64,000 bases of DNA. It comes from an uncultured Acidobacteriota bacterium (GTDB lineage: Bacteria; Acidobacteriota; Thermoanaerobaculia; UBA5066; Gp7-AA6). The position numbers were made by a program, and so were the translations under genes. The notes beneath the pieces are model-generated. The model saw only the letters and a program-made list of their open reading frames with translations, was not told the DNA's origin and did no database searches. Shown here piece after piece: positions 9,937 through 36,924 of the stretch (positions are counted from its first letter, which is position 1; the number at the start of each line of letters is the position of its first letter). The DNA lies in contig CAVXTP010000024.1 in the NCBI GenBank assembly GCA_963764715.1, positions 3,099 through 67,098 of the forward strand, given 5' to 3'.

Positions 9937-10035
9937 GGAGTCCAGTAATCCTACCGCCGCGGGCGGGACACCCGCCGGAGCCCGAAGGGCCGTGTCCTTT
10001 GCGCAGCGTCTGAGCAAACCATGCCTGGGATGGTT

Positions 10036-10692
10036 CTATGGATCGACGGCCGTCTGGGTCGAGTAGGGCAGCGAGAACATCCTGAATGTCAGGGCGACCG
10101 TGCCGATGCGGATCCGAGCACCGTCGTCGAGCGGCACCGGAACTTCGACCCTCCGGTCTCCGAGGTGAGTGCCATTCTTGCTGCCCAGGTCCTCGAGCGT
10201 GGCGCCCTCCTCCGTCACGACGATTCGCGCGTGGCGGCGAGAGACGCTCGGGTCGTCGATGAAAAGGCCAGCGCCTGGATCCCTTCCGATGACGTTCTCG
10301 CCCGCGTCCAGGGCCGTTCGCTTCCCGGCTCCCAGGATCCAGAAGGACCTCTTGCGGGCCGGGCCGAAAGACACCGCTTCGCGGACTTCCTCGGCGCTCC
10401 CGCTGAACGCGTAGCCGAACCCATGGACGGTCCGCACGTAGAGAGGCCGCCGCGCCTCGTCGCCGATCACGTCGCGCACTTCGACGAGCAGGCTCGTCAG
10501 CGTGGCGTCCGAAACGAACGTCCCGGGCCAAAGTCTCTCGTGGATCTGGCTCTTCGACACGGCTTTGGGCCGATTCTGGAGCAGAAGCTCCAGAAACTGG
10601 AACGCCTTGGGCTGCACATGGACACTCTCGCCGCGGACATACAACTCCCGCGTCTCCGAGTCGAGCACGCATTCACCGAAACGAATCCGCAT
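10036..10692 (-). CDS. One-component regulator: N-terminal OmpR/CadC-type winged-helix DNA-binding domain + C-terminal FHA domain (copy 1)
   Basis: 218 aa. The wHTH region is LDSETRELYVRGESVHVQPKAFQFLELLL...VRTVHGFGYAF. The FHA region is NVIGRDPGAGLFIDDPSVSRRHARIV...LGSKNGTHL. It is a paralog of 16071..16727. Confidence 0.85.
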   Translation of the reverse strand: MRIRFGECVLDSETRELYVRGESVHVQPKAFQFLELLLQNRPKAVSKSQIHERLWPGTFVSDATLTSLLVEVRDVIGDEARRPLYVRTVHGFGYAFSGSAEEVREAVSFGPARKRSFWILGAGKRTALDAGENVIGRDPGAGLFIDDPSVSRRHARIVVTEEGATLEDLGSKNGTHLGDRRVEVPVPLDDGARIRIGTVALTFRMFSLPYSTQTAVDP

Positions 10693-28403: not shown

Positions 28404-29182
28404 AGATCACGCTGAAGATCTGGCGGCAGAAGGACGCGAAGGCCCCGGGCGGCTTCGTCACCTACGACGCGACGGACGTCAACGAGGAGATGTCGTTTCT
28501 CGAGATGCTCGACGTCGTCAACGAGGGCCTCATCGGGAAGGGCGAGGACCCGATCGCGTTCGACCACGACTGCCGGGAGGGCATCTGCGGCACCTGCGGC
28601 GTCGTGATCAACGGCCGGGCGCACGGCCCGAAGACCCGCACGACCGCCTGCCAGCTCCACATGCGGAGCTTTTCGGACGGCGACGTCCTGACGATCGAGC
28701 CGTGGCGCGCGGGGGCTTTCCCCGTCATCAAGGACCTCGTCGTCGACCGCAGCGCCTTCGACCGGATCATCGCGGCTGGCGGCTTCATCTCCGCCGCGAT
28801 CGGCGGCGCGCCCGACGGCAACGCGATTCCGATCCCCAAGGAAAACGCGGACCTCGCGATGGACGCCGCGGCCTGCATCGGCTGCGGCGCCTGCGTCGCC
28901 GCCTGCCCCAACGCGTCCGCCATGCTCTTCGTGTCGGCCAAGATCTCGCAGCTCGCGCTCCTGCCGCAGGGGCAGCCCGAACGCCCCGACCGGGCGCGCA
29001 CCATGGTCGCGCAGATGGACGCGGAGCGCTTCGGCACCTGCACGAACCACGGCGAGTGCGAGGCGGCCTGCCCCAAGGGCATCCGCATGCAGTTCATCGC
29101 CATGATGAACTCCGACTACGTGAAGGCCAAGCTGACCGAGGGCCGGCGCCCGAGCGGGCTCTCGGACGGCGGCTCGGGATAG
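28400..29182 (+). CDS. sdhB: Succinate dehydrogenase iron-sulfur subunit
   Basis: The start forms an ATGA overlap with sdhA. The three cluster motifs are [22 protein letters not shown] and [12 protein letters not shown]. Confidence 0.95.
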
Positions 29183-29194
29183 CGAGGCCGATCC

Positions 29195-30598
29195 TTGACG
29201 GACGCGAAGAAGACCCGCACCGAGTCCGACACCATGGGGCCCGTCGAGGTCGCCGCCGACCGTTACTGGGGCGCGCAGACCGAGCGGTCCCTCCACCACT
29301 TCCGGATCGGGCCCGAGCGCTTCCCGCGGGAGCTGATCCGGGCGCTCGGCATCCTCAAAAAGGCGGCGGCCGTGGTCAACCGGGACCGCGGGGCGCTGCC
29401 CGCCGAGAAGGCCGACGCGATCATCCAGGCGGCCGACGAGGTCATCGAGGCCAAGCTCGACGACCACTTCCCCCTCTCGGTCTGGCAGACCGGCAGCGGC
29501 ACGCAGACCAACATGAACGCCAACGAGGTCATCTCCAACCGCGCGATCGAGATCCTCGGCGGCGTGCTTGGCTCGAAGAAGCCGGTCCACCCCAACGACG
29601 ACGTCAACAAGAGCCAGTCCTCCAACGACACCTTCCCGACCGCGATGTCCATCGCGGCCGTCGAGCAGACGCGCTTCCGGCTCATCCCCGCCGTCCGGAA
29701 GCTGCGCGACACGCTCGACCGGAAGGCGAAGGAGTTCGCCGGCATCGTCAAGATCGGCCGGACGCACCTCCAGGACGCCGTCCCGATGACGCTCGGCCAG
29801 GAGATCTCGGGCTGGGTCTCGCAGCTCGACCATTCGGTCGCCCACCTCGAGGACTCCCTGCCGCACCTCCAGGAGCTCGCGCTCGGCGGGACCGCGGTCG
29901 GCACGGGCCTGAACGCCCCCGCCGACTTCGGCCCCAGGGTCGCCGCCGAGATCGCGAAGCTGACCGGGATCCCCTTCGTCACGGCGCCCAACAAGTTCGA
30001 GGCGCTGGCCGCGCACGACGCGCTCGTCGCCGGGCACGGCGCCGTCCGGACGCTCGCCGCGGCGCTCATGAAGATCGCCAACGACGTCCGGTGGCTCGCC
30101 TCGGGCCCGCGCTCGGGACTCGCCGAGATCCGGATCCCGGAGAACGAGCCGGGCTCCTCGATCATGCCGGGCAAGGTCAACCCGACGCAGTCCGAGGCGC
30201 TGACGATGGTCTGCGCCCAGGTCTTCGGCAACGACGTCGCGGTGACGGTCGGGGGCGCGTCCGGGAACTTCGAGCTCAACGTCTACAAGCCGCTCATCAT
30301 CTCGAACTACCTGCGCTCGGTGCACCTGCTCGCCGACGCGTGCGAGTCGTTCGAGGAGCACTGCGCCCGCGGCATCGAGCCCGACCACGAGAAGATCAAG
30401 GAGCACGTCGGGCGATCGCTGATGCTCGTCACGGCGCTGGCGCCCCGGATCGGCTACGACAAGGCCGCGGCGATCGCCAAGAAGGCGCACAAGGAGGGCT
30501 CGACCCTCCGGGAAGCGGCGCTCTCCCTGGGCTACCTCACAGCCGAGGAGTTCGACCGCGACGTCCGTCCCGAGAAGATGGTCGGCCCCGGGGACTGA
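29195..30598 (+). CDS. fumC: Class II fumarate hydratase
   Basis: 467 aa with a TTG start. The N-terminus is [24 protein letters not shown]. The signature [16 protein letters not shown] is present. Confidence 0.95.
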
Positions 30599-30600
30599 CG

Positions 30601-31074
30601 GTGCCCGAACACTCTTCCATCTTCACCTCGGTCCACGTCGACTCTCTCCTCCTCGCCTCGGGGCGGCTCGCGTTCGCCGCCGTGCTCGGGGCCGTGCTCG
30701 GCTTCCAGCGCGAGCGCGTCCACAGCGCGGCCGGACTGCGGACGCACATCCTCGTCGCCGCCGGATCGGCGCTCATCGTGCTCTCCGGCATCCAGTCGGG
30801 CTTCAACACGGGCGATTCGAGCCGCGTCATCCAGGGCGTCGTGGCCGGGATCGGGTTCCTCGGCGCCGGGACGATCCTGAAGCTCGGCGACCGCGTCGAG
30901 GTGCACGGCCTGACGACCGCCGCCAGCATCTGGCTGACGGCCGGCGTCGGCGTCGCGGCCGGCCTCGGCCATTTCTGGCTGCCGGTCGTCGCCGCGCTGA
31001 TCGGCTGGCTGATCCTCGGGCCCCTCGCCCGCCTGGAAAAGGCTCACCCCGGCGCCGGCCCGCCGCGCAGCTGA
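30601..31074 (+). CDS. MgtC/SapB family membrane protein
   Basis: GTG 30601 lies 2 nt after the fumC stop. Family-like blocks are GFQRERVHSAAGLRTHILVAAGSAL and GVVAGIGFLGAGTIL. Confidence 0.8.
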   Translation: MPEHSSIFTSVHVDSLLLASGRLAFAAVLGAVLGFQRERVHSAAGLRTHILVAAGSALIVLSGIQSGFNTGDSSRVIQGVVAGIGFLGAGTILKLGDRVEVHGLTTAASIWLTAGVGVAAGLGHFWLPVVAALIGWLILGPLARLEKAHPGAGPPRS

Positions 31075-31085
31075 GCCGGCTCAGC
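31070..31085. repeat. 16-bp perfect palindrome GCTGAGCCGGCTCAGC containing both convergent stop codons
   Basis: The mgtC-family stop TGA (31072-74) and the TlpA-like stop (31081-83, TCA on the plus strand) sit symmetrically inside the palindrome. Confidence 0.85.
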
Positions 31086-31815
31086 GCAGCAGCGACGCGA
31101 GCTTCGTCTCGGCTTCCGCGTGCAGCGTCGGCGGCGCGCCGTAGAACGCCCCCGCGGCGCGGCCTTCCGCGTCGAAGACGAGGAGCGTCGGCACCGCGCT
31201 GACGTCGCCGAACGAGCGGACGAGGTCGGGCGGACCGATCACCCACGTCAGCGGGAGCTTGAGCTCCGCGACGAGCTTCCGGACCTTCGGCTCCTCGGAC
31301 TCGATCGCGACGGCCGCGACGACGAGCTTCTCCCCGTACCGCTTCTTGAGCTCGCCGAGCCAGCCGAGCGTCGCGCGGCAGGGCGGGCACCAGGTCGCCC
31401 AGAACTCGACCAGCACGACACGGCCCTCGAGGTCCTGGCGCGAGACCGTCTTTCCTTCGAGGTCGGTCAGCGTGACCGCGGGGAAGGCCGCCACCTCGTG
31501 GCCCTTCGACGGCGACGCCGCGGCGCGCGCGTCGGCTTTGCGCCCCGCGAGCAGGAGCTCGATCATCCGGGTCAGATCGCCCTGGAACCGCTCGTGCGCG
31601 GCCACGCTCTTGAGGGGCGCGTAGCGCCCGCCCTCCTCCTTCTCCCCTTTCCCGTAGAAGCCGAAATCGTTGGGGGTCGCGACGAGCACGTCGTCGACGA
31701 AGATCGCGGGATAGCGCGTCACGCCGAAGCGCTTCGCGAGAGCCGAGTCGCCGTAGTTCTCCGAGACGAAGCGGGCCTTCCCTCCGAACTTCTGGACGAC
31801 GCTCCGGGCCAGCAA
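31081..31815 (-). CDS. Thioredoxin-fold remnant + TlpA-like thiol:disulfide oxidoreductase (WCPPC); probably the C-terminal part of a longer UGA-containing protein
   Basis: The motif VVLVEFWATWCPPCRATL is present. As an ORF it has only a TTG start, no SD and no signal peptide. It is in frame with 31837..32997 and begins in the middle of a thioredoxin fold. Confidence 0.7.
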   Translation of the reverse strand: MLARSVVQKFGGKARFVSENYGDSALAKRFGVTRYPAIFVDDVLVATPNDFGFYGKGEKEEGGRYAPLKSVAAHERFQGDLTRMIELLLAGRKADARAAASPSKGHEVAAFPAVTLTDLEGKTVSRQDLEGRVVLVEFWATWCPPCRATLGWLGELKKRYGEKLVVAAVAIESEEPKVRKLVAELKLPLTWVIGPPDLVRSFGDVSAVPTLLVFDAEGRAAGAFYGAPPTLHAEAETKLASLLR

Positions 31816-31831
31816 ACTTGCCGGGTCGGAG
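31802..31831 (-). other. SECIS-like stem-loop immediately 3' of in-frame UGA (31837-31839)
   Basis: The mRNA reads UGA-AAC-CU-[CUCCG]AC[CCGGCA]AGUU[UGCUGG]CC[CGGAG]. That is a 5-bp lower stem, a 2x2 internal loop, a 6-bp upper stem with one G-U pair, and an AGUU apical loop starting 19 nt after the UGA. Confidence 0.35.
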
Positions 31832-31836
31832 AGGTT

Positions 31837-32997
31837 TCAGGTGTAAGGCCAGCGGACGAGCGTCACGGTCACGGTCGCGGGCGGCGTCGCGGGGCGCGGC
31901 CGGGCGGGCTCGAGCGCCGCGAAGTACCGGGGAAGGACTTCGGCGACGACGGCCGAGGCCTGCGCGGGAGAGGCGCCGGCGGCCGCGGAGGCCGCGTCCG
32001 CCTCGCCCGCCTCCAGGAAGATCCGGCCGATGCTCTGGTCGACCCCGCCGGACTCGGAGAGTCGGGGACGGAGCTCCGCCAGCCTCGCCTTCGCCTGCCC
32101 GGCCGTCAGCTCCCGGACCTTTCCGGTCAGCGGGGCGACCCGCAGCACGGCCTGGAGGTACCGGAGCATCGTGCCGTAGGCCAGACCGGCGGCATCGAGC
32201 TCGCGCGCCTCCTTGAGGGTGGAGCTCGCGGTGATGAAGTCGCGGTGCCGGTCGATCGAGGCCGGCGGCCGGTACGCCGACAGGAGCTCGCCCTCGAGCG
32301 CGTCGAGCTCGGCCTGGAGGCTCCGCATCGGGGGCGGCCGCAGGCTCGAGGGTGTCGAGAGCGTCCGGCAGAAGGCGCCGAGGTCGCGCTGGGCGCGGGC
32401 GACCCCGAGGTAATAGAAGCCGACTTCGGGCATCGTGTTGCGCTCGTACTCGAGGCTCGCGTCGTAGAAGACGCGGACGGCCGGGACCGAGGCCTCGCCG
32501 ACCGCGCGCACGGCCGCCGGCGTCACGCCGTCGAGGGCCTTCGCCGACGGAGCGCCGAGGTCCTTCGCGAGCTCCTGTCCCGTCCGCTTCCAGGCGTCCT
32601 CGAACGCGGCGTCGCTGTTGCGTTCGGCCGCAGGCAGCGATCCGAGGTACTTCGACGCCTCGAGGTCCGGCTGCACGCTCGCCAGGCGCTGGAGCGCGAG
32701 GAGGCGGCGGCCGCCCTGCATGGCCTCCTCGACGCGCCCCATCGCCGGCTCGGCGCCCTGCTTGATCTGGAGCCACATGTCGTCCTTCGACGCGTTCGAC
32801 TTCAAGTAGGCCGACCAGCTCTGGATCGCGGCGGCGAGCGGATCGGCCGCGTGCGGCGGCGACGCGGCGATCGAGGCGAGGGAGGCGGTGGCGACGACCG
32901 CCGCGGCGAGAAGGACGAGACGGGCCGGACGCATCGCGGCCCGGAGCATGGCACGGGAGGCCGCGGCGAATCGCCGGGCGACCCCTGAGGATCTCAT
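31837..32997 (-). CDS. Secreted, mostly alpha-helical hypothetical protein ending at in-frame UGA
   Basis: ATG 32997 forms an ATGA overlap with the upstream protease gene. The N-terminus is MRSSGVARRFAAASRAMLRAAMRPARLVLLAAAVVATASLASIAA, a signal peptide. The ORF ends ...ATVTVTLVRWPYT*, which looks like a thioredoxin beta1 strand. Confidence 0.7.
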   Translation of the reverse strand: MRSSGVARRFAAASRAMLRAAMRPARLVLLAAAVVATASLASIAASPPHAADPLAAAIQSWSAYLKSNASKDDMWLQIKQGAEPAMGRVEEAMQGGRRLLALQRLASVQPDLEASKYLGSLPAAERNSDAAFEDAWKRTGQELAKDLGAPSAKALDGVTPAAVRAVGEASVPAVRVFYDASLEYERNTMPEVGFYYLGVARAQRDLGAFCRTLSTPSSLRPPPMRSLQAELDALEGELLSAYRPPASIDRHRDFITASSTLKEARELDAAGLAYGTMLRYLQAVLRVAPLTGKVRELTAGQAKARLAELRPRLSESGGVDQSIGRIFLEAGEADAASAAAGASPAQASAVVAEVLPRYFAALEPARPRPATPPATVTVTLVRWPYT

Positions 32998-33914
32998 CGG
33001 GAAGTCATTGGCGCGCCGGCCAGGCGCTGGAGCTCGGCCGACTCGAGGGCCCGGACCTCGGCCGGCGTCAGCGCCGCGAGCTGCTCGAGCGTGCGGGTCT
33101 TCCCGGCCTCGCTCGCGATCCGGTAGCCCAGCGCGTAGCCCGATCGCGAGGGAATGTCGAGCTCGGCGCCGCCGAGGAAGAAGCGCGCGTAGTCCTCGCG
33201 CTTCGTGCTGTCGAGCAGCCGCAGGATCTCGGCCGCCAGACCGGGGATCATCGTGTCGGGGACCGACGGCATGCAGCAGATCTGCGAAACCGACAGCTTC
33301 GGATTGAGCCGCCGGCTGACATAGGTCGCGAGGCCCTCGCTCCAGAGCGCCCAGCCGACCGTCTCCGGGTCCTCGGCCACGATCTCGCCGTGGTAGACGT
33401 GGAAGAGCTCGTGCACGACGAGGGGCGAGAGCTCCTCCTCGAGCCGCGCGATGACGTCGAGACCGAACATGAGGGCCGACTTCCCGTCCACGTCGCGCGT
33501 CGCGCCGTCGAAGGCGCCCGCCGAGTAGACGAAGTAGACGGGCGTCGAGCACCGGAACCGCGGAAACGCTTTGCGGAACGCGTCGAGCTCCCCCGGCAGC
33601 TCGGCCGAGAGTCGTGCGGAGAGGTCCCGCATCGAGGCCTCGATCGCCGGCACCGTCTCGAACGACGTCGGGACGAATTCCGCCGGGGGCTTGCGCGCGC
33701 CCTGGAAGACGCCTTCGTACACGGCTCCGTTGGGCTTGCGGACGAGCTCCTCGAAGAGGCGGTACTGCTCGGCGGGGGCCTGGCCGCGGGCCTGTCCCCA
33801 GAACGTCCAGAACGCGGGCATGAGGTCCGCCGTGCGGCAGCCGGGCGCCGGGGGGGACGGCGACGCGAGGGCCGCCGCGAGGAGGATCGACGGGACGAGC
33901 GGAAGCGGAGTCAC
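32994..33914 (-). CDS. Putative Zn-dependent protease, DUF2268-like (HExxH)
   Basis: 306 aa with a signal peptide. The metal motif is VVHELFHVYH. Other family-like blocks are WALWSEGLATYVS and PSRSGYALGY. Confidence 0.7.
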   Translation of the reverse strand: MTPLPLVPSILLAAALASPSPPAPGCRTADLMPAFWTFWGQARGQAPAEQYRLFEELVRKPNGAVYEGVFQGARKPPAEFVPTSFETVPAIEASMRDLSARLSAELPGELDAFRKAFPRFRCSTPVYFVYSAGAFDGATRDVDGKSALMFGLDVIARLEEELSPLVVHELFHVYHGEIVAEDPETVGWALWSEGLATYVSRRLNPKLSVSQICCMPSVPDTMIPGLAAEILRLLDSTKREDYARFFLGGAELDIPSRSGYALGYRIASEAGKTRTLEQLAALTPAEVRALESAELQRLAGAPMTSR

Positions 33915-33950: not shown

Positions 33951-34286
33951 TCAGGCGCCGTGCGGCGCGCGAGGGCGGCGGATCCGATGAACGGCCACGA
34001 GCAGGAGCGCGGTCGCACCCGTCACCCAGGGCAGCCAGCGCTTGCCGGCCTCGACGTAGAGCCAGGTCATCGCGGCGATGACGACGGCCTCGAGCACCAG
34101 GAAGAGGGCTTCCATGTGCGGGAAGCGCGGCTCGAGCCTCCGGTGCAGGGCCGTCCCGGCGAAGACGACGATCCCCGCGCCGACGAAGAGCGCGACGAAG
34201 AGGGCGTGCTCGGGCCAGTGGTCGGCTTTCGCGACTCCTTTCAGCACGAACACCACGCCGAGAAGGGCATGTCCGAGCGACGTCAT
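33951..34286 (-). CDS. Small hypothetical membrane protein (about 4 TM)
   Basis: MTSLGHALLGVVFVLKGVAKADHW...ALFVALFVGAGIVVFAGTAL...LVLEAVVIAAMTWLYV...ATALLLVAV. Only the C-terminal third of the track ORF 33951..34826 looks protein-like. Confidence 0.5.
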   Translation of the reverse strand: MTSLGHALLGVVFVLKGVAKADHWPEHALFVALFVGAGIVVFAGTALHRRLEPRFPHMEALFLVLEAVVIAAMTWLYVEAGKRWLPWVTGATALLLVAVHRIRRPRAPHGA

Positions 34287-34306
34287 CCGCTCCTGCAGCT
34301 TCACGT

Positions 34307-35062
34307 TCACGGCGCCCTCCACTTCGCGAGGGCCGCGGCCGCGCCCTCCTGCATCGCCCGGGCGTCGTCCGGCGGAACGCTCAGCGGCGCGCCGCCCGCC
34401 GCCGGAAGCTTCGACGGGAGACCCACCGGGGATCGGCCGTAGAGAAGGCCGTAGAACGTGAGCGCGGCGACGTAGGTTCCGGCCGGCGTGGGATGGAGTC
34501 CGTCGGGCGAGTAGAGCGCCAGCGTCGGATCCTTCTTCCGGGCTTCGCGCCACGCCTCTCCCGCCGGGCACAGCAGGCCTCCGACCTGCTTCGCCGCGCC
34601 GGCGTAGGACTGGACGACGCCGTCGAAATCCTCCGGCCGGCTCGTCGACGGCCAGACCATATAGAGCACGGGGCGCGCTCCGACCGCGCGGATCGCCTTC
34701 GCGAATTGGTCCGCGTAGGCGCGCAGGACGGTGATCCCGTCCGAGGAGGCCGAGGGGCCCTGCTGGAGCACCACGTAGTCCCAGCCCCCTTGGGCGATCG
34801 CCTTCTGCGCGTCTCCCTGGTTCCACTGGTCTTCGAGGCTGAAGCCCGGGCCCGTCACCGCGCGGACGAAGGGCCGCGGCTCGCCCGCCGCCTCAGCCAG
34901 AGAGCGGAACATGGCGGGCAGGTCGTTGAAGTAGGTCAGGCTGTTGCCGATGAAGAGAACGTGGATCGGGGCCCGGACCTCCTCGTCCGCGCGCTCCTGG
35001 CCGAGCGCGGCGCCCGTCGCCGCGGCGAGGGCGAGGACGACGGCGAGCCGGCGGCGCCTCAA
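34307..35062 (-). CDS. SGNH/GDSL-like hydrolase, secreted
   Basis: TTG 35062 overlaps the upstream stop (TTGA). The N-terminus LRRRRLAVVLALAAATGAALGQ is a signal peptide. HVLFIGNSLTY is the block I Ser motif. Confidence 0.65.
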   Translation of the reverse strand: MRRRRLAVVLALAAATGAALGQERADEEVRAPIHVLFIGNSLTYFNDLPAMFRSLAEAAGEPRPFVRAVTGPGFSLEDQWNQGDAQKAIAQGGWDYVVLQQGPSASSDGITVLRAYADQFAKAIRAVGARPVLYMVWPSTSRPEDFDGVVQSYAGAAKQVGGLLCPAGEAWREARKKDPTLALYSPDGLHPTPAGTYVAALTFYGLLYGRSPVGLPSKLPAAGGAPLSVPPDDARAMQEGAAAALAKWRAP

Positions 35063-36924
35063 GACGGCGCCTTGACGAGAACCGGGATCGCGACGTGCGA
35101 GGGATGGGAGGACGAGCGGTAGACGCGATGGGTCGCCGCGCGGAAGTCCGCGGCCTTCGCCTCGAAAATGTTGGGCACGAACGTCTGGGGGTTGCGATCG
35201 ATGATCGGGAACCAGGTGCTCTGCACCTGCACCATGATGCGGTGGCCCTTGCGGAACGCAAAGCTCTGCGTGTGGAGGCTGTAGGCGTACTCGAGGACCG
35301 CGCCGGGAGCGATCGGCTCGGGCTTCTCGAAGGACTTCCGGTACCGTCCGCGGAAGACCTCGTTGGAGACCATGAGCTGGTAGCCCGCGAGGTCCCAGTT
35401 CTCCGGGTACCGCTCCGGGTAGACGTCGATGAGCTTGACGACCCAGTCGGCGTCGCTCCCGGTGGTCGAGGCGAAGACGTGCGCCGCGACCTCGCCCGCG
35501 ATCGTCACGTCCTCGGTCAGCGGCTGCGACTCGTAGGTCAGGACGTCCGCCCGGTCGTCGACGAAGCGCTGGTCCTCGACGAGCCAGGTCGGCCACTTCG
35601 ACCCGCCCGGAAAGTACGTCGTCTGGATCGGGCGCCGCCGGTACGGGACCGGGTGCGCGGGATCGGAGAGGTACGCGTCGGACGCCTCGGCCTCGCCGGA
35701 GGCGCCGGGCGGCGGGGCCTCGAACCCGAGGGAGCCGTCCGCCCCGAAATAGAGGTTGCGGACCTGCGTGCGCGCGGCCGGAGGCCACGCCTCCCACCGC
35801 CGCCAGCGGTTCGCTCCGGCCTCGAAGGTCAGGGCCTCGGGAAGGTTGAGAGTTCCGCGATCCTTGAGGTAGTAGGCAAACCAGGGCGCCTGGATCTCCT
35901 CGCGGAAGTACTTCGCCGTCGCGCTGTCGAACGGGATTGCGCCGAGACGGTCGCCGTCGCCGTGCGTCCAGCCGCCGTGGTTCCACGGTCCGACGACGAG
36001 CCGGTTGACGTCCTTCGGATCGTGCTTCTCGAGCGCCGCGTAGATCTGCAGCGGGCCGAAGAAGTCCTCCTGGTCCCACCAGCCGGCGACGTTCAGCGTC
36101 GGCACCGCGACCTCGCGAAGGTGCGGGATGACGGTCTGCTTCTTCCAGAACGCGTCGTAGTCGGGGTGCCCGACGAAGTCGTTCCAGGTCGGGATCTTGC
36201 CGTGGAAGAAGAGGGCGTTGACGTTCGACAGCGGGCCCAGGGCCAGATACCACTTGTAGGTGTCGTAGCGATCGAAGCCGAAGGCCTCCAGGTTCTTGCC
36301 GCTCTCGAGCCAGTACGCGTACTCGAGCCCGTAGCTCAGCCGAAACGCGCCGTTGTGGTGAAAGTCGTCCCCGAGCCACATGTCCGAGGGCGAGGCCTGG
36401 GGGGAAATCGCCTTGAGCGCCGGGTGGGGCTCGAGCGCCCCCATGATCGTCGTCCAGCCGTCGTAGGACACGCCGAGCATCCCGACGCGGCCGTTGTTGC
36501 CGGGGACGTTCTCGAGGAGCCAGGCGATGGTGTCGTACGTGTCGGTGCCCTCGTCCAGCGTCTTCGTGTCACCCGGCGCGCGCGCCGGCCGCTGCATCAC
36601 GAACACGCCCTCCGAACCGAACTTCCCGCGCAGGTCCTCGAAGACGAACACGTAGCCGTCGTCGGCGAACGCCTTGAGCGATCCGTCGAGCCGCTTGCCG
36701 GATTCCGCGACGCCGTAGGGCGTGCGCTGGATCAGGATCGGGAGCGGCCCGTGCGCGGCGCGAGGCTCGAAGATCTTCGCGTGGAGCCGGACGCCGTCGC
36801 GCATCGGGATCATGACGTCCCGATCGACGTACGGCTCCTCGACGCTTCCGGCGCGGGGGACGGCGGCCATCCCACCGAGCGCGAGGCACAGTGCGGCCGC
36901 GGCGGGAACGAGGCGGATCTTCAT
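35059..36924 (-). CDS. CocE/NonD family hydrolase (X-Pro dipeptidyl-peptidase, S15)
   Basis: 621 aa with a signal peptide. Family blocks are IQRTPYG, GMLGVSYDGW (nucleophile elbow) and the PepX_C-like C-terminus. Confidence 0.9.
   Translation of the reverse strand: MKIRLVPAAAALCLALGGMAAVPRAGSVEEPYVDRDVMIPMRDGVRLHAKIFEPRAAHGPLPILIQRTPYGVAESGKRLDGSLKAFADDGYVFVFEDLRGKFGSEGVFVMQRPARAPGDTKTLDEGTDTYDTIAWLLENVPGNNGRVGMLGVSYDGWTTIMGALEPHPALKAISPQASPSDMWLGDDFHHNGAFRLSYGLEYAYWLESGKNLEAFGFDRYDTYKWYLALGPLSNVNALFFHGKIPTWNDFVGHPDYDAFWKKQTVIPHLREVAVPTLNVAGWWDQEDFFGPLQIYAALEKHDPKDVNRLVVGPWNHGGWTHGDGDRLGAIPFDSATAKYFREEIQAPWFAYYLKDRGTLNLPEALTFEAGANRWRRWEAWPPAARTQVRNLYFGADGSLGFEAPPPGASGEAEASDAYLSDPAHPVPYRRRPIQTTYFPGGSKWPTWLVEDQRFVDDRADVLTYESQPLTEDVTIAGEVAAHVFASTTGSDADWVVKLIDVYPERYPENWDLAGYQLMVSNEVFRGRYRKSFEKPEPIAPGAVLEYAYSLHTQSFAFRKGHRIMVQVQSTWFPIIDRNPQTFVPNIFEAKAADFRAATHRVYRSSSHPSHVAIPVLVKAPS

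Follow-up and report, generated by a model that had tools for sequence, protein, structure and literature searches.

An in-frame UGA, probably read as selenocysteine, unites two annotated genes into one exported thioredoxin-fold protein of Acidobacteriota

We analysed a stretch of 64,000 nucleotides (nt) from an uncultured Acidobacteriota bacterium (assembly GCA_963764715.1, contig CAVXTP010000024.1; the whole stretch is called the window here) in which two open reading frames (ORFs) on the minus strand, one for a secreted helical protein and one for a TlpA-like protein, abut at a TGA codon. From the sequence, positions 32997..31081 are very probably a single gene for a secreted redox protein of ~620-640 amino acids (aa), in which the UGA is a recoded codon, read as selenocysteine (Sec). 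This is standard bacterial Sec recoding in a thioredoxin-fold redox protein, but the protein probably represents a new family with an unusual three-domain architecture. Coordinates of all features are collected in Table 1.

Read on the minus strand, 32997..31081 forms one frame of 638 sense codons plus a stop, and the TGA at 31837-31839 (codon 387) is its sole interruption. A preliminary description of this DNA had placed the upstream and downstream ORFs in the same frame with nothing but this TGA between them, and our reading agrees: the peptide across the UGA, ...TVTVTLVRWPYT--NLSDPASLLARSVVQKFGGKARFVSENYG... (also quoted as ...PATVTVTLVRWPYT--NLSDPASLLARSVVQKFGGKARFVSENYGDSALAKRFGVTRYPAIFVDD...), is exactly the one that it gave. 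Its estimate of a product of about 638 aa fits the number of codons, but the true start may be ATG 32949 or 32934 instead of 32997; homologues are shorter by 16-22 residues at the N-terminus, which these alternative starts fit. The first 21 residues counted from ATG 32997 hold an RRF that loosely resembles a twin-arginine translocation (Tat) motif. A scan of the window for other coding-like in-frame TGA codons found none besides this one. Global reassignment of UGA was considered and excluded, since TGA is an ordinary stop elsewhere in the window's genome, for example at the end of the neighbouring DUF2268 gene and at the selenoprotein gene's own end.

The TGA is conserved well beyond the window. 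A scan of one genome per GTDB species yielded 80 loci, 32 of which carried the junction motif; one of these (L003) carried it twice, for a total of 33 junctions. TGA occupied the junction in 34/34 sequences (the 33 junctions plus the window) and no other stop codon was seen there, whereas the terminal stops of the same 34 genes, used as a control, comprised 13 TGA, 16 TAG and 5 TAA. Carriers of the TGA form are labelled Thermoanaerobaculia, Vicinamibacteria, Terriglobia, Ca. Angelobacter, Ca. Acidoferrum, Bryobacteraceae, Pyrinomonadaceae and Acidobacteria gp7, and further include Ca. Eisenbacteria and one Planctomycetota metagenome-assembled genome (MAG). The recurrence of TGA, flanking peptide and hairpin (described below) in 33 further junctions, across several Acidobacteriota classes and other phyla, is far beyond chance. 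Most TGA forms have the active-site motif UxxS; UxxC occurs in L012, L024 and L028. The two junctions of L003 (148 and 1934) belong to tandem paralogues, two complete copies in succession. At one locus from a Myxococcaceae MAG (L031, ~9950-10050) the WPYT-U-NLSDP segment is deleted and a frameshift falls exactly at the Sec site, with GCAAGTTTGCTGG still present; gene decay in a lineage without Sec use could explain this, as could faulty assembly.

Public annotation divides these proteins at the same point. A homologue search of 5.8 billion proteins, with the junction and the C-terminal part as query, returned ~120 close homologues, nearly all of them annotated as 244 or 239 aa, lengths which indicate that gene callers start these proteins just past the stop. 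The N-terminal ORF has at least 1,249 homologous clusters (90% identity), for the most part drawn from MAGs and metagenomes. Among the best 120 of these clusters nearly all members are 347-410 aa long, are called "hypothetical protein" where they are named at all, and have no Pfam domain; the exception, P0275, has 654 aa and carries PF10026. Every NCBI, ENA or JGI protein that we encountered for these loci was a split half.

Selection, by contrast with annotation, runs straight through the TGA. The peptide over the junction, TLVRWP[YF][TS]-U-x[LI][SC]DPA[SG]LL, is kept despite synonymous codon changes that extend up to the TGA and resume directly after it. In the 34 sequences codons -8 to -1 encode an essentially invariant T-L-V-R-W-P-[Y/F]-[T/S] and, Trp excepted, use 2-5 synonymous codons each; codon +1 varies (N, S or H); and codons +2 to +5, [L/I]-[S/C]-D-P, allow at most one conservative alternative, again with 2-5 synonymous codons each. 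Amino acids that stay fixed amid synonymous change imply purifying selection at the protein level, here on codons that lie ahead of any possible restart.

The downstream ORF has few of the properties of an independent gene. As the preliminary description had pointed out, it begins in the window with a TTG only (31815, eight codons past the stop), has no signal peptide, and has no Shine-Dalgarno sequence: no GGAG, GAGG or AGGA occurs upstream of that TTG. Orthologues do not supply a start and signal peptide in its place. Past the TGA, the earliest in-frame ATG, GTG or TTG is a TTG at +8 in 25/34 sequences, and in the other nine, which are without it, a GTG at +13 to +39 comes first; a Shine-Dalgarno-like motif precedes the downstream start in 1/34. 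Three Blastocatellia-type loci (L025, L027 and L030) are of particular value here, since their upstream in-frame ORF has just 44-54 codons, which encode a signal peptide and beta1 and end in ..VTITLVRWPYT. At L025 (8889-10819) the ATG of this mini-ORF overlaps, by ATGA, the stop of a separate helical-domain gene having its own signal peptide. As far as the sequence can tell, a mini-ORF composed of a signal peptide and one beta-strand makes sense only with translation through the TGA. These three loci also record an event of gene fission or fusion, their short gene consisting of signal peptide, Sec-thioredoxin module and TlpA domain.

Continuous forms of the protein exist, and they have Cys at the site of the UGA. 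One of them is P0044 (326 aa; ..VTLVRWPYS-C-NLSDPASLL..). When 1.84 billion cluster representatives were searched exhaustively with HMMER, more came to light: the full-length P0125 (599 aa), P0191, P0194, the short forms P0207 and P0220, both with a signal peptide, and P0254 (438 aa; ..VVVVRWPFL-C-RLSDPASIL..). Where we located the genes of P0044 (locus L084) and P0125 (locus L085), the Cys codon was TGC. Most other representatives (roughly 50, versus 6 Cys forms, by table count) begin at query residues 77-95, that is, just past the stop. Trp was found at the Sec position in none of the homologues. Two sequences depart from the common pattern in other ways. P0254 has no TlpA domain, and its N-terminal region resembles, by eye, an extracytoplasmic function (ECF) sigma factor with a membrane anchor. 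P0181 (117 aa) has Arg at the Sec position (..RWPFT-R-NLSDPAGLL..), which would be one mutation away from TGA (CGA).

Directly 3' of the UGA lies a candidate selenocysteine insertion sequence (SECIS) element. With the U of UGA numbered as nt 1, the 30-nt hairpin that the preliminary description had drawn, CUCCG/AC/CCGGCA-AGUU-UGCUGG/CC/CGGAG, is the structure of lowest free energy for the 42 nt that follow the UGA (-17.5 kcal/mol versus a shuffle mean of -10.7; z = -2.9; 0/200 shuffles as stable), and its loop, nt 22-25, starts as described at the 19th nt after the UGA. The upper stem is strongly conserved among relatives: in 98% of cells nt 16-21 (CCRGCA) pair with nt 26-31 (UGCUGG), and pair 18:29 is split between G-U (18 sequences) and A-U (16). 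Positions 22:25 show perfect covariation (A..U in 25 sequences, G..C in 9, no exceptions) around an invariant G23 and U24, for an apex consensus of GCA-RGUY-UGC, and RNAalifold, unprompted, paired nt 17-21 with 26-30. Across the 34 sequences entropy is zero at the third-codon positions nt 21, 24, 27 and 30, as compared with ~1.5 bits at neighbouring third positions, and the invariant sites include AGT and TTG, which are rare codons in a genome of ~70% G+C. The lower stem (nt 9-13 with 34-38) is paired in 63% of cells; the hairpin is conserved in the upper stem, its synonymous sites and its covarying pair, and only in part in the lower stem.

The Cys forms provide a natural control for this element. 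L084 and L085 encode the same DPASLL peptide, but do so by CCC GCG AGC CTG CTG/CTT and not by CCR GCA AGT TTG CTG, a codon choice that abolishes both hairpin stem and GU loop. Constraint on the nucleotides is thus confined to genes that have the TGA.

The arrangement recalls that of E. coli fdhF, in which the in-frame UGA140 is likewise followed, directly 3', by a coding-region stem-loop. After UGA140 fdhF reads UGACACGGCCCAUCGGUUGCAGGUCUGCACC, and nine family members (e.g. L003) share its nt 19-28, GCAGGUCUGC, in both sequence and register; the apex of the window is the variant GCAAGUUUGC. G23 and U24, which we take from work on E. coli to be the loop bases contacted by SelB, stand at the same distance from the UGA in both. 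The two elements also differ. The E. coli SECIS has a bulged U17 that SelB requires, and the upper stem of the family is without it; the lower stem is unlike that of fdhF and poorly conserved. The fdhF product is a molybdopterin enzyme, to which the family protein, a presumptive secreted thiol/selenol oxidoreductase, is unrelated. The comparison suggests that SECIS elements of Acidobacteriota have an RGUY loop, usually AGUU, in the fdhF register.

Two further genes have similar hairpins. When the locus flanks were scanned for hairpins behind coding-like in-frame TGA codons, two unrelated genes came up on contigs of family members, both with read-through products that score above NCBIfam cut-offs for known selenoprotein families: one for a SelL-related redox protein, with the hairpin CGCGC-AGUU-GCGCG after its TGA, and one for an AhpD-like, peroxidase-related protein, with CGCAG-AGUUU-CUGCG. 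These genes suggest that the AGUU-type SECIS loop is common in Acidobacteriota, and they are indirect evidence of Sec decoding in genomes that carry the family. The model matched by the second, TIGR01926, appears in the table of a recent inventory as an AhpD-like CxxU selenoprotein family (PMC13188914). Sec users are on record in the phylum, with three selenoprotein families listed for Acidobacteria (PMC1794560, Table 2) and three known selenoprotein genes for Occallatibacter riparius (PMC12013277, Table 2), and [NiFeSe] hydrogenases are present in Acidobacteriota MAGs (PMC13582414).

To characterize the product, we considered its domains separately. The signal peptide that the preliminary description had assigned to the upstream ORF is apparent by eye, and short-form homologues have signal peptides of their own. 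A Pfam scan of the first 500 residues found nothing. The helical domain of ~315 aa gave a confident all-helical AlphaFold2 model, with a predicted local distance difference test score (pLDDT) of 86.6 and a predicted template modelling score (pTM) of 0.81; Foldseek found no neighbour for this model among solved structures in the PDB (best E 1.2, template modelling (TM) score < 0.3). The domain has many invariant polar residues, e.g. in a YRPPxSIDRH..F motif. Its Cys210, in ..AFCRxLS.. (32356-32376), is nearly invariant and could be a redox partner of Sec.

The structure of the junction module was predicted with AlphaFold2 for the natural Cys form P0044, using 27 homologues. The model has beta1 at residues 58-64, WPYSC at 65-69 (low confidence; C69), alpha1 at 74-84, beta2 at 90-96, alpha2 at 101-106, beta3 at 113-116 and beta4 at 119-122 after the invariant Pro of (Y/F)P(A/V), and alpha3 at 147-165. 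As modelled, the module is a thioredoxin/glutaredoxin fold with Sec or Cys at the N-terminal end of alpha1, and the thioredoxin-fold order that had been read around the UGA is recovered, with moderate confidence, as beta1-[U/C]-alpha1-beta2-alpha2-beta3-beta4-alpha3. In the window the cis-Pro motif, RYPAIF, lies at 31699-31716 of the minus strand. Sequence comparisons of the Sec module gave no match above cut-off in Pfam or NCBIfam (best Pfam Glutaredoxin, E 0.0035, and Thioredoxin_3, 0.044), and against PDB sequences its profile gave only sub-threshold matches (E ~0.3); the sub-threshold matches are all thioredoxin-fold proteins or families (E. coli Grx1, PDI, BdbD, Thioredoxin_3, HyaE and DUF1525). 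An ArsC-like CxxS kinship was also considered, but no ArsC model scored.

The C-terminal domain is readily recognized. Pfam Redoxin (59.1 bits, cut-off 26.6) and AhpC-TSA (47.6 bits, cut-off 26) match it, in accord with the TlpA domain that had been proposed for the downstream ORF from its WCPPC, and Foldseek aligned it with ResA, TlpA and CcmG (E = 7e-12; target-normalised TM 0.8-0.88). Its scores stay below the NCBIfam cut-offs for TlpA (50.6 vs 230), ResA (61.4 vs 170) and DsbE (32.2 vs 123.15). In P0127 and P0155 (ORFs of 550 and 545 aa) the TlpA domain leads directly into a helical domain, which suggests that tandem copies have been fused in frame; such fusions could give rise to proteins with more than one Sec.

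We compared the family with selenoproteins already described. An inventory of 119 prokaryotic selenoprotein families from 2026 includes, in its Table 1, several Trx, Prx, TlpA and Redoxin entries (PMC13188914). Its entries Sec-Trx, Sec-Grx, Prx-like thiol:disulfide oxidoreductase, 'UGC-containing TlpA', 'Redoxin family UxxC' and 'thiol-disulfide isomerase-like UxxC' resemble our family: within a thioredoxin-like fold, Sec stands in for the leading Cys of a CxxC-type motif at the alpha1 N-terminus, Cys homologues exist, and a redox role is presumed. By the same table, Sec in those families lies inside a recognisable Trx, TlpA or Redoxin domain, whereas here the TlpA domain keeps its WCPPC and Sec lies 149 residues upstream in a separate module; unlike those entries, the family has mostly a UxxS motif and an extra all-alpha domain attached. 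The nearest NCBIfam model, WAxxUGC_long, scores 29.3 against a cut-off of 300, on the TlpA domain only; although NCBIfam release 20 covers many selenoprotein families, neither the Sec module nor the helical domain is matched by any of its models. A full-text literature search for the junction motif returned nothing relevant. As tabulated, none of the 119 families matches; going by the inventory's descriptions and the NCBIfam models, an earlier listing of the family is unlikely.

Among proteins without Sec, glutaredoxins and monothiol CxxS proteins have the same beta-alpha-beta-alpha-beta-beta-alpha topology and a single nucleophile followed by xxS. They differ in that all matches to them are below significance, the Grx1 alignment is one residue off at the active site, and nothing indicates glutathione binding. 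Among the TlpA/ResA/CcmG/Etrx extracytoplasmic thiol-disulfide reductases, ResA, TlpA and CcmG resemble the C-terminal domain in both sequence and structure. Neisseria PilB (Trx-MsrA-MsrB) and the Etrx/MsrAB systems are the model for an exported TlpA-like domain fused to the catalytic domain that it recycles; the difference is that the partner fused here is the Sec module and not Msr.

From these likenesses we propose how the protein might be made and function. The SECIS stem-loop, which lies within the coding region 12 nt past the UGA, would recruit SelB with Sec-tRNA(Sec), and Sec would be inserted, to give a product that consists, in order, of signal peptide, all-alpha domain, Sec-containing thioredoxin/glutaredoxin-fold module (UxxS or UxxC) and TlpA/ResA domain with WCPPC. 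After export, the periplasmic selenolate of the UxxS site would act as the single nucleophile on an oxidised substrate, which may be a disulfide, sulfenate, peroxide or metalloid. The resulting selenenylsulfide or selenenic acid would be resolved by the neighbouring CPPC of the TlpA domain, and this domain would in turn be re-reduced by a membrane electron transporter of the DsbD/CcdA type. TlpA-like domains that are fused to or paired with MsrA/B form the pattern behind this proposed recharging. Since a split gene yields the helical domain as an exported partner of its own, this domain probably binds or presents the substrate. Recoding, domain order and folds rest on the evidence gathered above, whereas we infer the chemistry and the electron route; the relay from Sec module to CPPC to membrane reductase is about as likely as not. 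A further, rather unlikely, possibility is that the UGA and SECIS constitute a selenium-dependent switch, in which termination would free the all-alpha domain and Sec insertion would fuse that domain to its Sec-thioredoxin/TlpA partner. Blastocatellia-type loci make both proteins from two ATGA-overlapping genes, each with a signal peptide, which implies that the helical protein can stand alone. Were the switch real, the family would represent a new extracytoplasmic selenium-dependent redox pathway in soil Acidobacteriota.

Several results weigh against a single selenoprotein gene. Sec at the UGA is a prediction from sequence. Scans of the window for tRNAs and Rfam families found nothing, ARAGORN found no tRNA-Sec in L001-L036, and tblastn with E. 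coli SelA, SelB, SelD and FdhF gave no match in the window and the 80 loci L001-L080, searches that covered the window and ~0.6 Mb of locus flanks. In the hairpin, classical compensatory covariation is limited to 22:25, the stem being mostly invariant; that pair would close a 2-nt loop in free RNA; nt 16-21 pair continuously with nt 26-31, leaving no room for the bulged U17; and Rfam has no family that matches the hairpin even at E up to 10. The confidence of the P0044 model is moderate near the active site (mean pLDDT 70, < 50 at residues 67-69). Lastly, when ORFs within ~9 kb of the junction were clustered for 33 sources (32 loci and the window), no conserved neighbour emerged that would hint at a substrate or an electron donor.

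The locus could instead be two genes, with the UGA as the real stop of a secreted helical protein, the thioredoxin/TlpA protein made by re-initiation or from an internal start, and the hairpin serving mRNA stability or translational coupling. All public gene calls do split the locus (244/239-aa and 364-386-aa products), the helical domain truly is a separate protein in Blastocatellia-type loci, and the missing Sec machinery in the window and flanks would be as expected. What makes this alternative extremely improbable is that the downstream product would be left without a signal peptide and without beta1 of its fold, and would depend on a start after the TGA that is not conserved and has a Shine-Dalgarno-like motif in a single sequence. 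Amino-acid selection acts on the codons that separate the TGA from any possible start; the upstream "gene" of L025, L027 and L030 would be a bare 44-54-aa signal peptide; the stop is never TAA or TAG, yet real stops vary; and continuous Cys forms occur. Even less can be said for a pseudogene, or for a TGA introduced into a Cys-type gene by faulty sequencing or assembly. The deletion and frameshift at the exact site in the Myxococcaceae MAG and the Arg of P0181 are what decay or error might produce, but the same TGA occurs in 34 independent sequences that differ in assembly, technology and phylum, and both halves are under strong purifying selection, so this explanation is effectively refuted.

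A subtler alternative accepts recoding of the UGA and changes the amino acid: Cys could be inserted by a SelB-dependent tRNA-Cys with a UCA anticodon, or Trp by low-level, hairpin-stimulated read-through with tRNA-Trp. The sequences do not tell which amino acid enters, and, going by the title of their 2018 report (listed in PMC13582414), Vargas-Rodriguez et al. describe a non-canonical tRNA-Cys that recodes a Sec UGA to Cys in a SelB-dependent manner. We nevertheless consider non-Sec recoding very unlikely, in view of the SelB-type apex, the alternation of homologues between UGA and Cys only (the pattern of every established selenoprotein family), the known-family selenoprotein genes with AGUU-loop hairpins on the L016 and L017 contigs, and the fact that Trp is never seen at the site in any homologue. 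Sec remains by far the most probable residue.

The surroundings of the gene vary. The upstream gene (32994..33914), a match to Pfam DUF2268 (E = 8.9e-9), shares an ATGA with the candidate ATG 32997, as the preliminary description had stated in proposing translational coupling to a DUF2268-like Zn protease; the overlap is present, but the coupling is a chance local arrangement and no family trait. DUF2268 is kept as a neighbour only in the close relative L001, and we rejected the link as a feature of the family. The upstream DUF2268, GDSL-like and S15-peptidase genes and the downstream MgtC, FumC and Sdh/Frd Fe-S genes are common to the closest relatives, L001 and L002, only. On the downstream side the MgtC-family gene is convergent with the selenoprotein gene; upstream, the small protein has no Pfam match and looks by eye like a membrane protein. 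One neighbour recurred in the clustering, an FtsX/MacB-type permease family (8 loci, identified by eye) that is probably uninformative, and the same clustering gave no conserved ccm, sco or dsbD neighbours. The Cys form at L085 (6001-7800; GCA_018268315.1, JAFDWU010000002.1) adjoins a DUF2339 gene and ccmC/ccmB/ccmA-like cytochrome c maturation genes, and has a TonB-ExbBD-receptor cluster on its other flank; such neighbours were not seen at Sec-form loci.

Table 1. Positions of the predicted selenoprotein gene, its parts and its surroundings in the window, and of two candidate selenoprotein genes on contigs of other family members
Feature	Position	Strand	Remarks
Complete predicted selenoprotein coding sequence	31081..32997	-	638 codons + stop; UGA is codon 387; start may be ATG 32949/32934
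In-frame TGA, read as probable Sec codon (residue 387)	31837..31839	-	Based on conservation and Cys homologues
Candidate SECIS hairpin	31802..31831	-	Upper stem-loop CCGGCA-AGUU-UGCUGG 31809-31824 (nt 16-31); lower stem 31827-31831 with 31802-31806
Signal peptide region, residues 1-51	32845..32997	-	Hydrophobic core LVLLAAAVVATASLASIAA; ends ..PPHAA before invariant D52; judged by eye
All-alpha domain, residues 52-366	31900..32844	-	No Pfam match; separate upstream gene in Blastocatellia-type loci
Putative Sec-containing thioredoxin-like module, residues 375-483	31549..31875	-	beta1 TVTVTLVR, then WPYT-U-NLS-DP at alpha1 start
TlpA/ResA-like thioredoxin domain, residues 504-631	31105..31488	-	WCPPC 31378-31392, both cysteines kept
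Local context, downstream	28430-31074	+	Sdh/Frd-type Fe-S subunit; class II fumarase 29195-30598; MgtC-family protein ending 31074
Local context, upstream	33951-36924	-	S15 X-Pro dipeptidyl-peptidase 35059-36924; GDSL/DUF4886-like hydrolase; small protein
SelL-related redox protein	L017:3506-4147, TGA 3740	+	NF040769 126.6 bits (cut-off 120); ..FLRHYG-U-IFC..; Terriglobia contig
AhpD-like peroxidase-related gene	L016:16966-17568, TGA 17281	+	TIGR01926 121.6 bits (cut-off 81.8); ..NRCVY-U-IDSH.. (CxxU)

The family adds a widespread group from soil bacteria to the known thioredoxin-fold selenoproteins. Specialists already expect finds of this kind; the correction to annotation is a large-scale one, in a dominant soil phylum, because recognising the Sec codon restores a single exported enzyme where NCBI, ENA and JGI now have two "hypothetical proteins". 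The RGUY-loop pattern could sharpen selenoprotein prediction in the Acidobacteriota, which are poorly cultured and under-studied. For the organisms themselves, the architecture suggests that selenium serves redox chemistry in the cell envelope, by way of a helical domain without structural counterpart, a UxxS Sec module and a built-in TlpA reductase.

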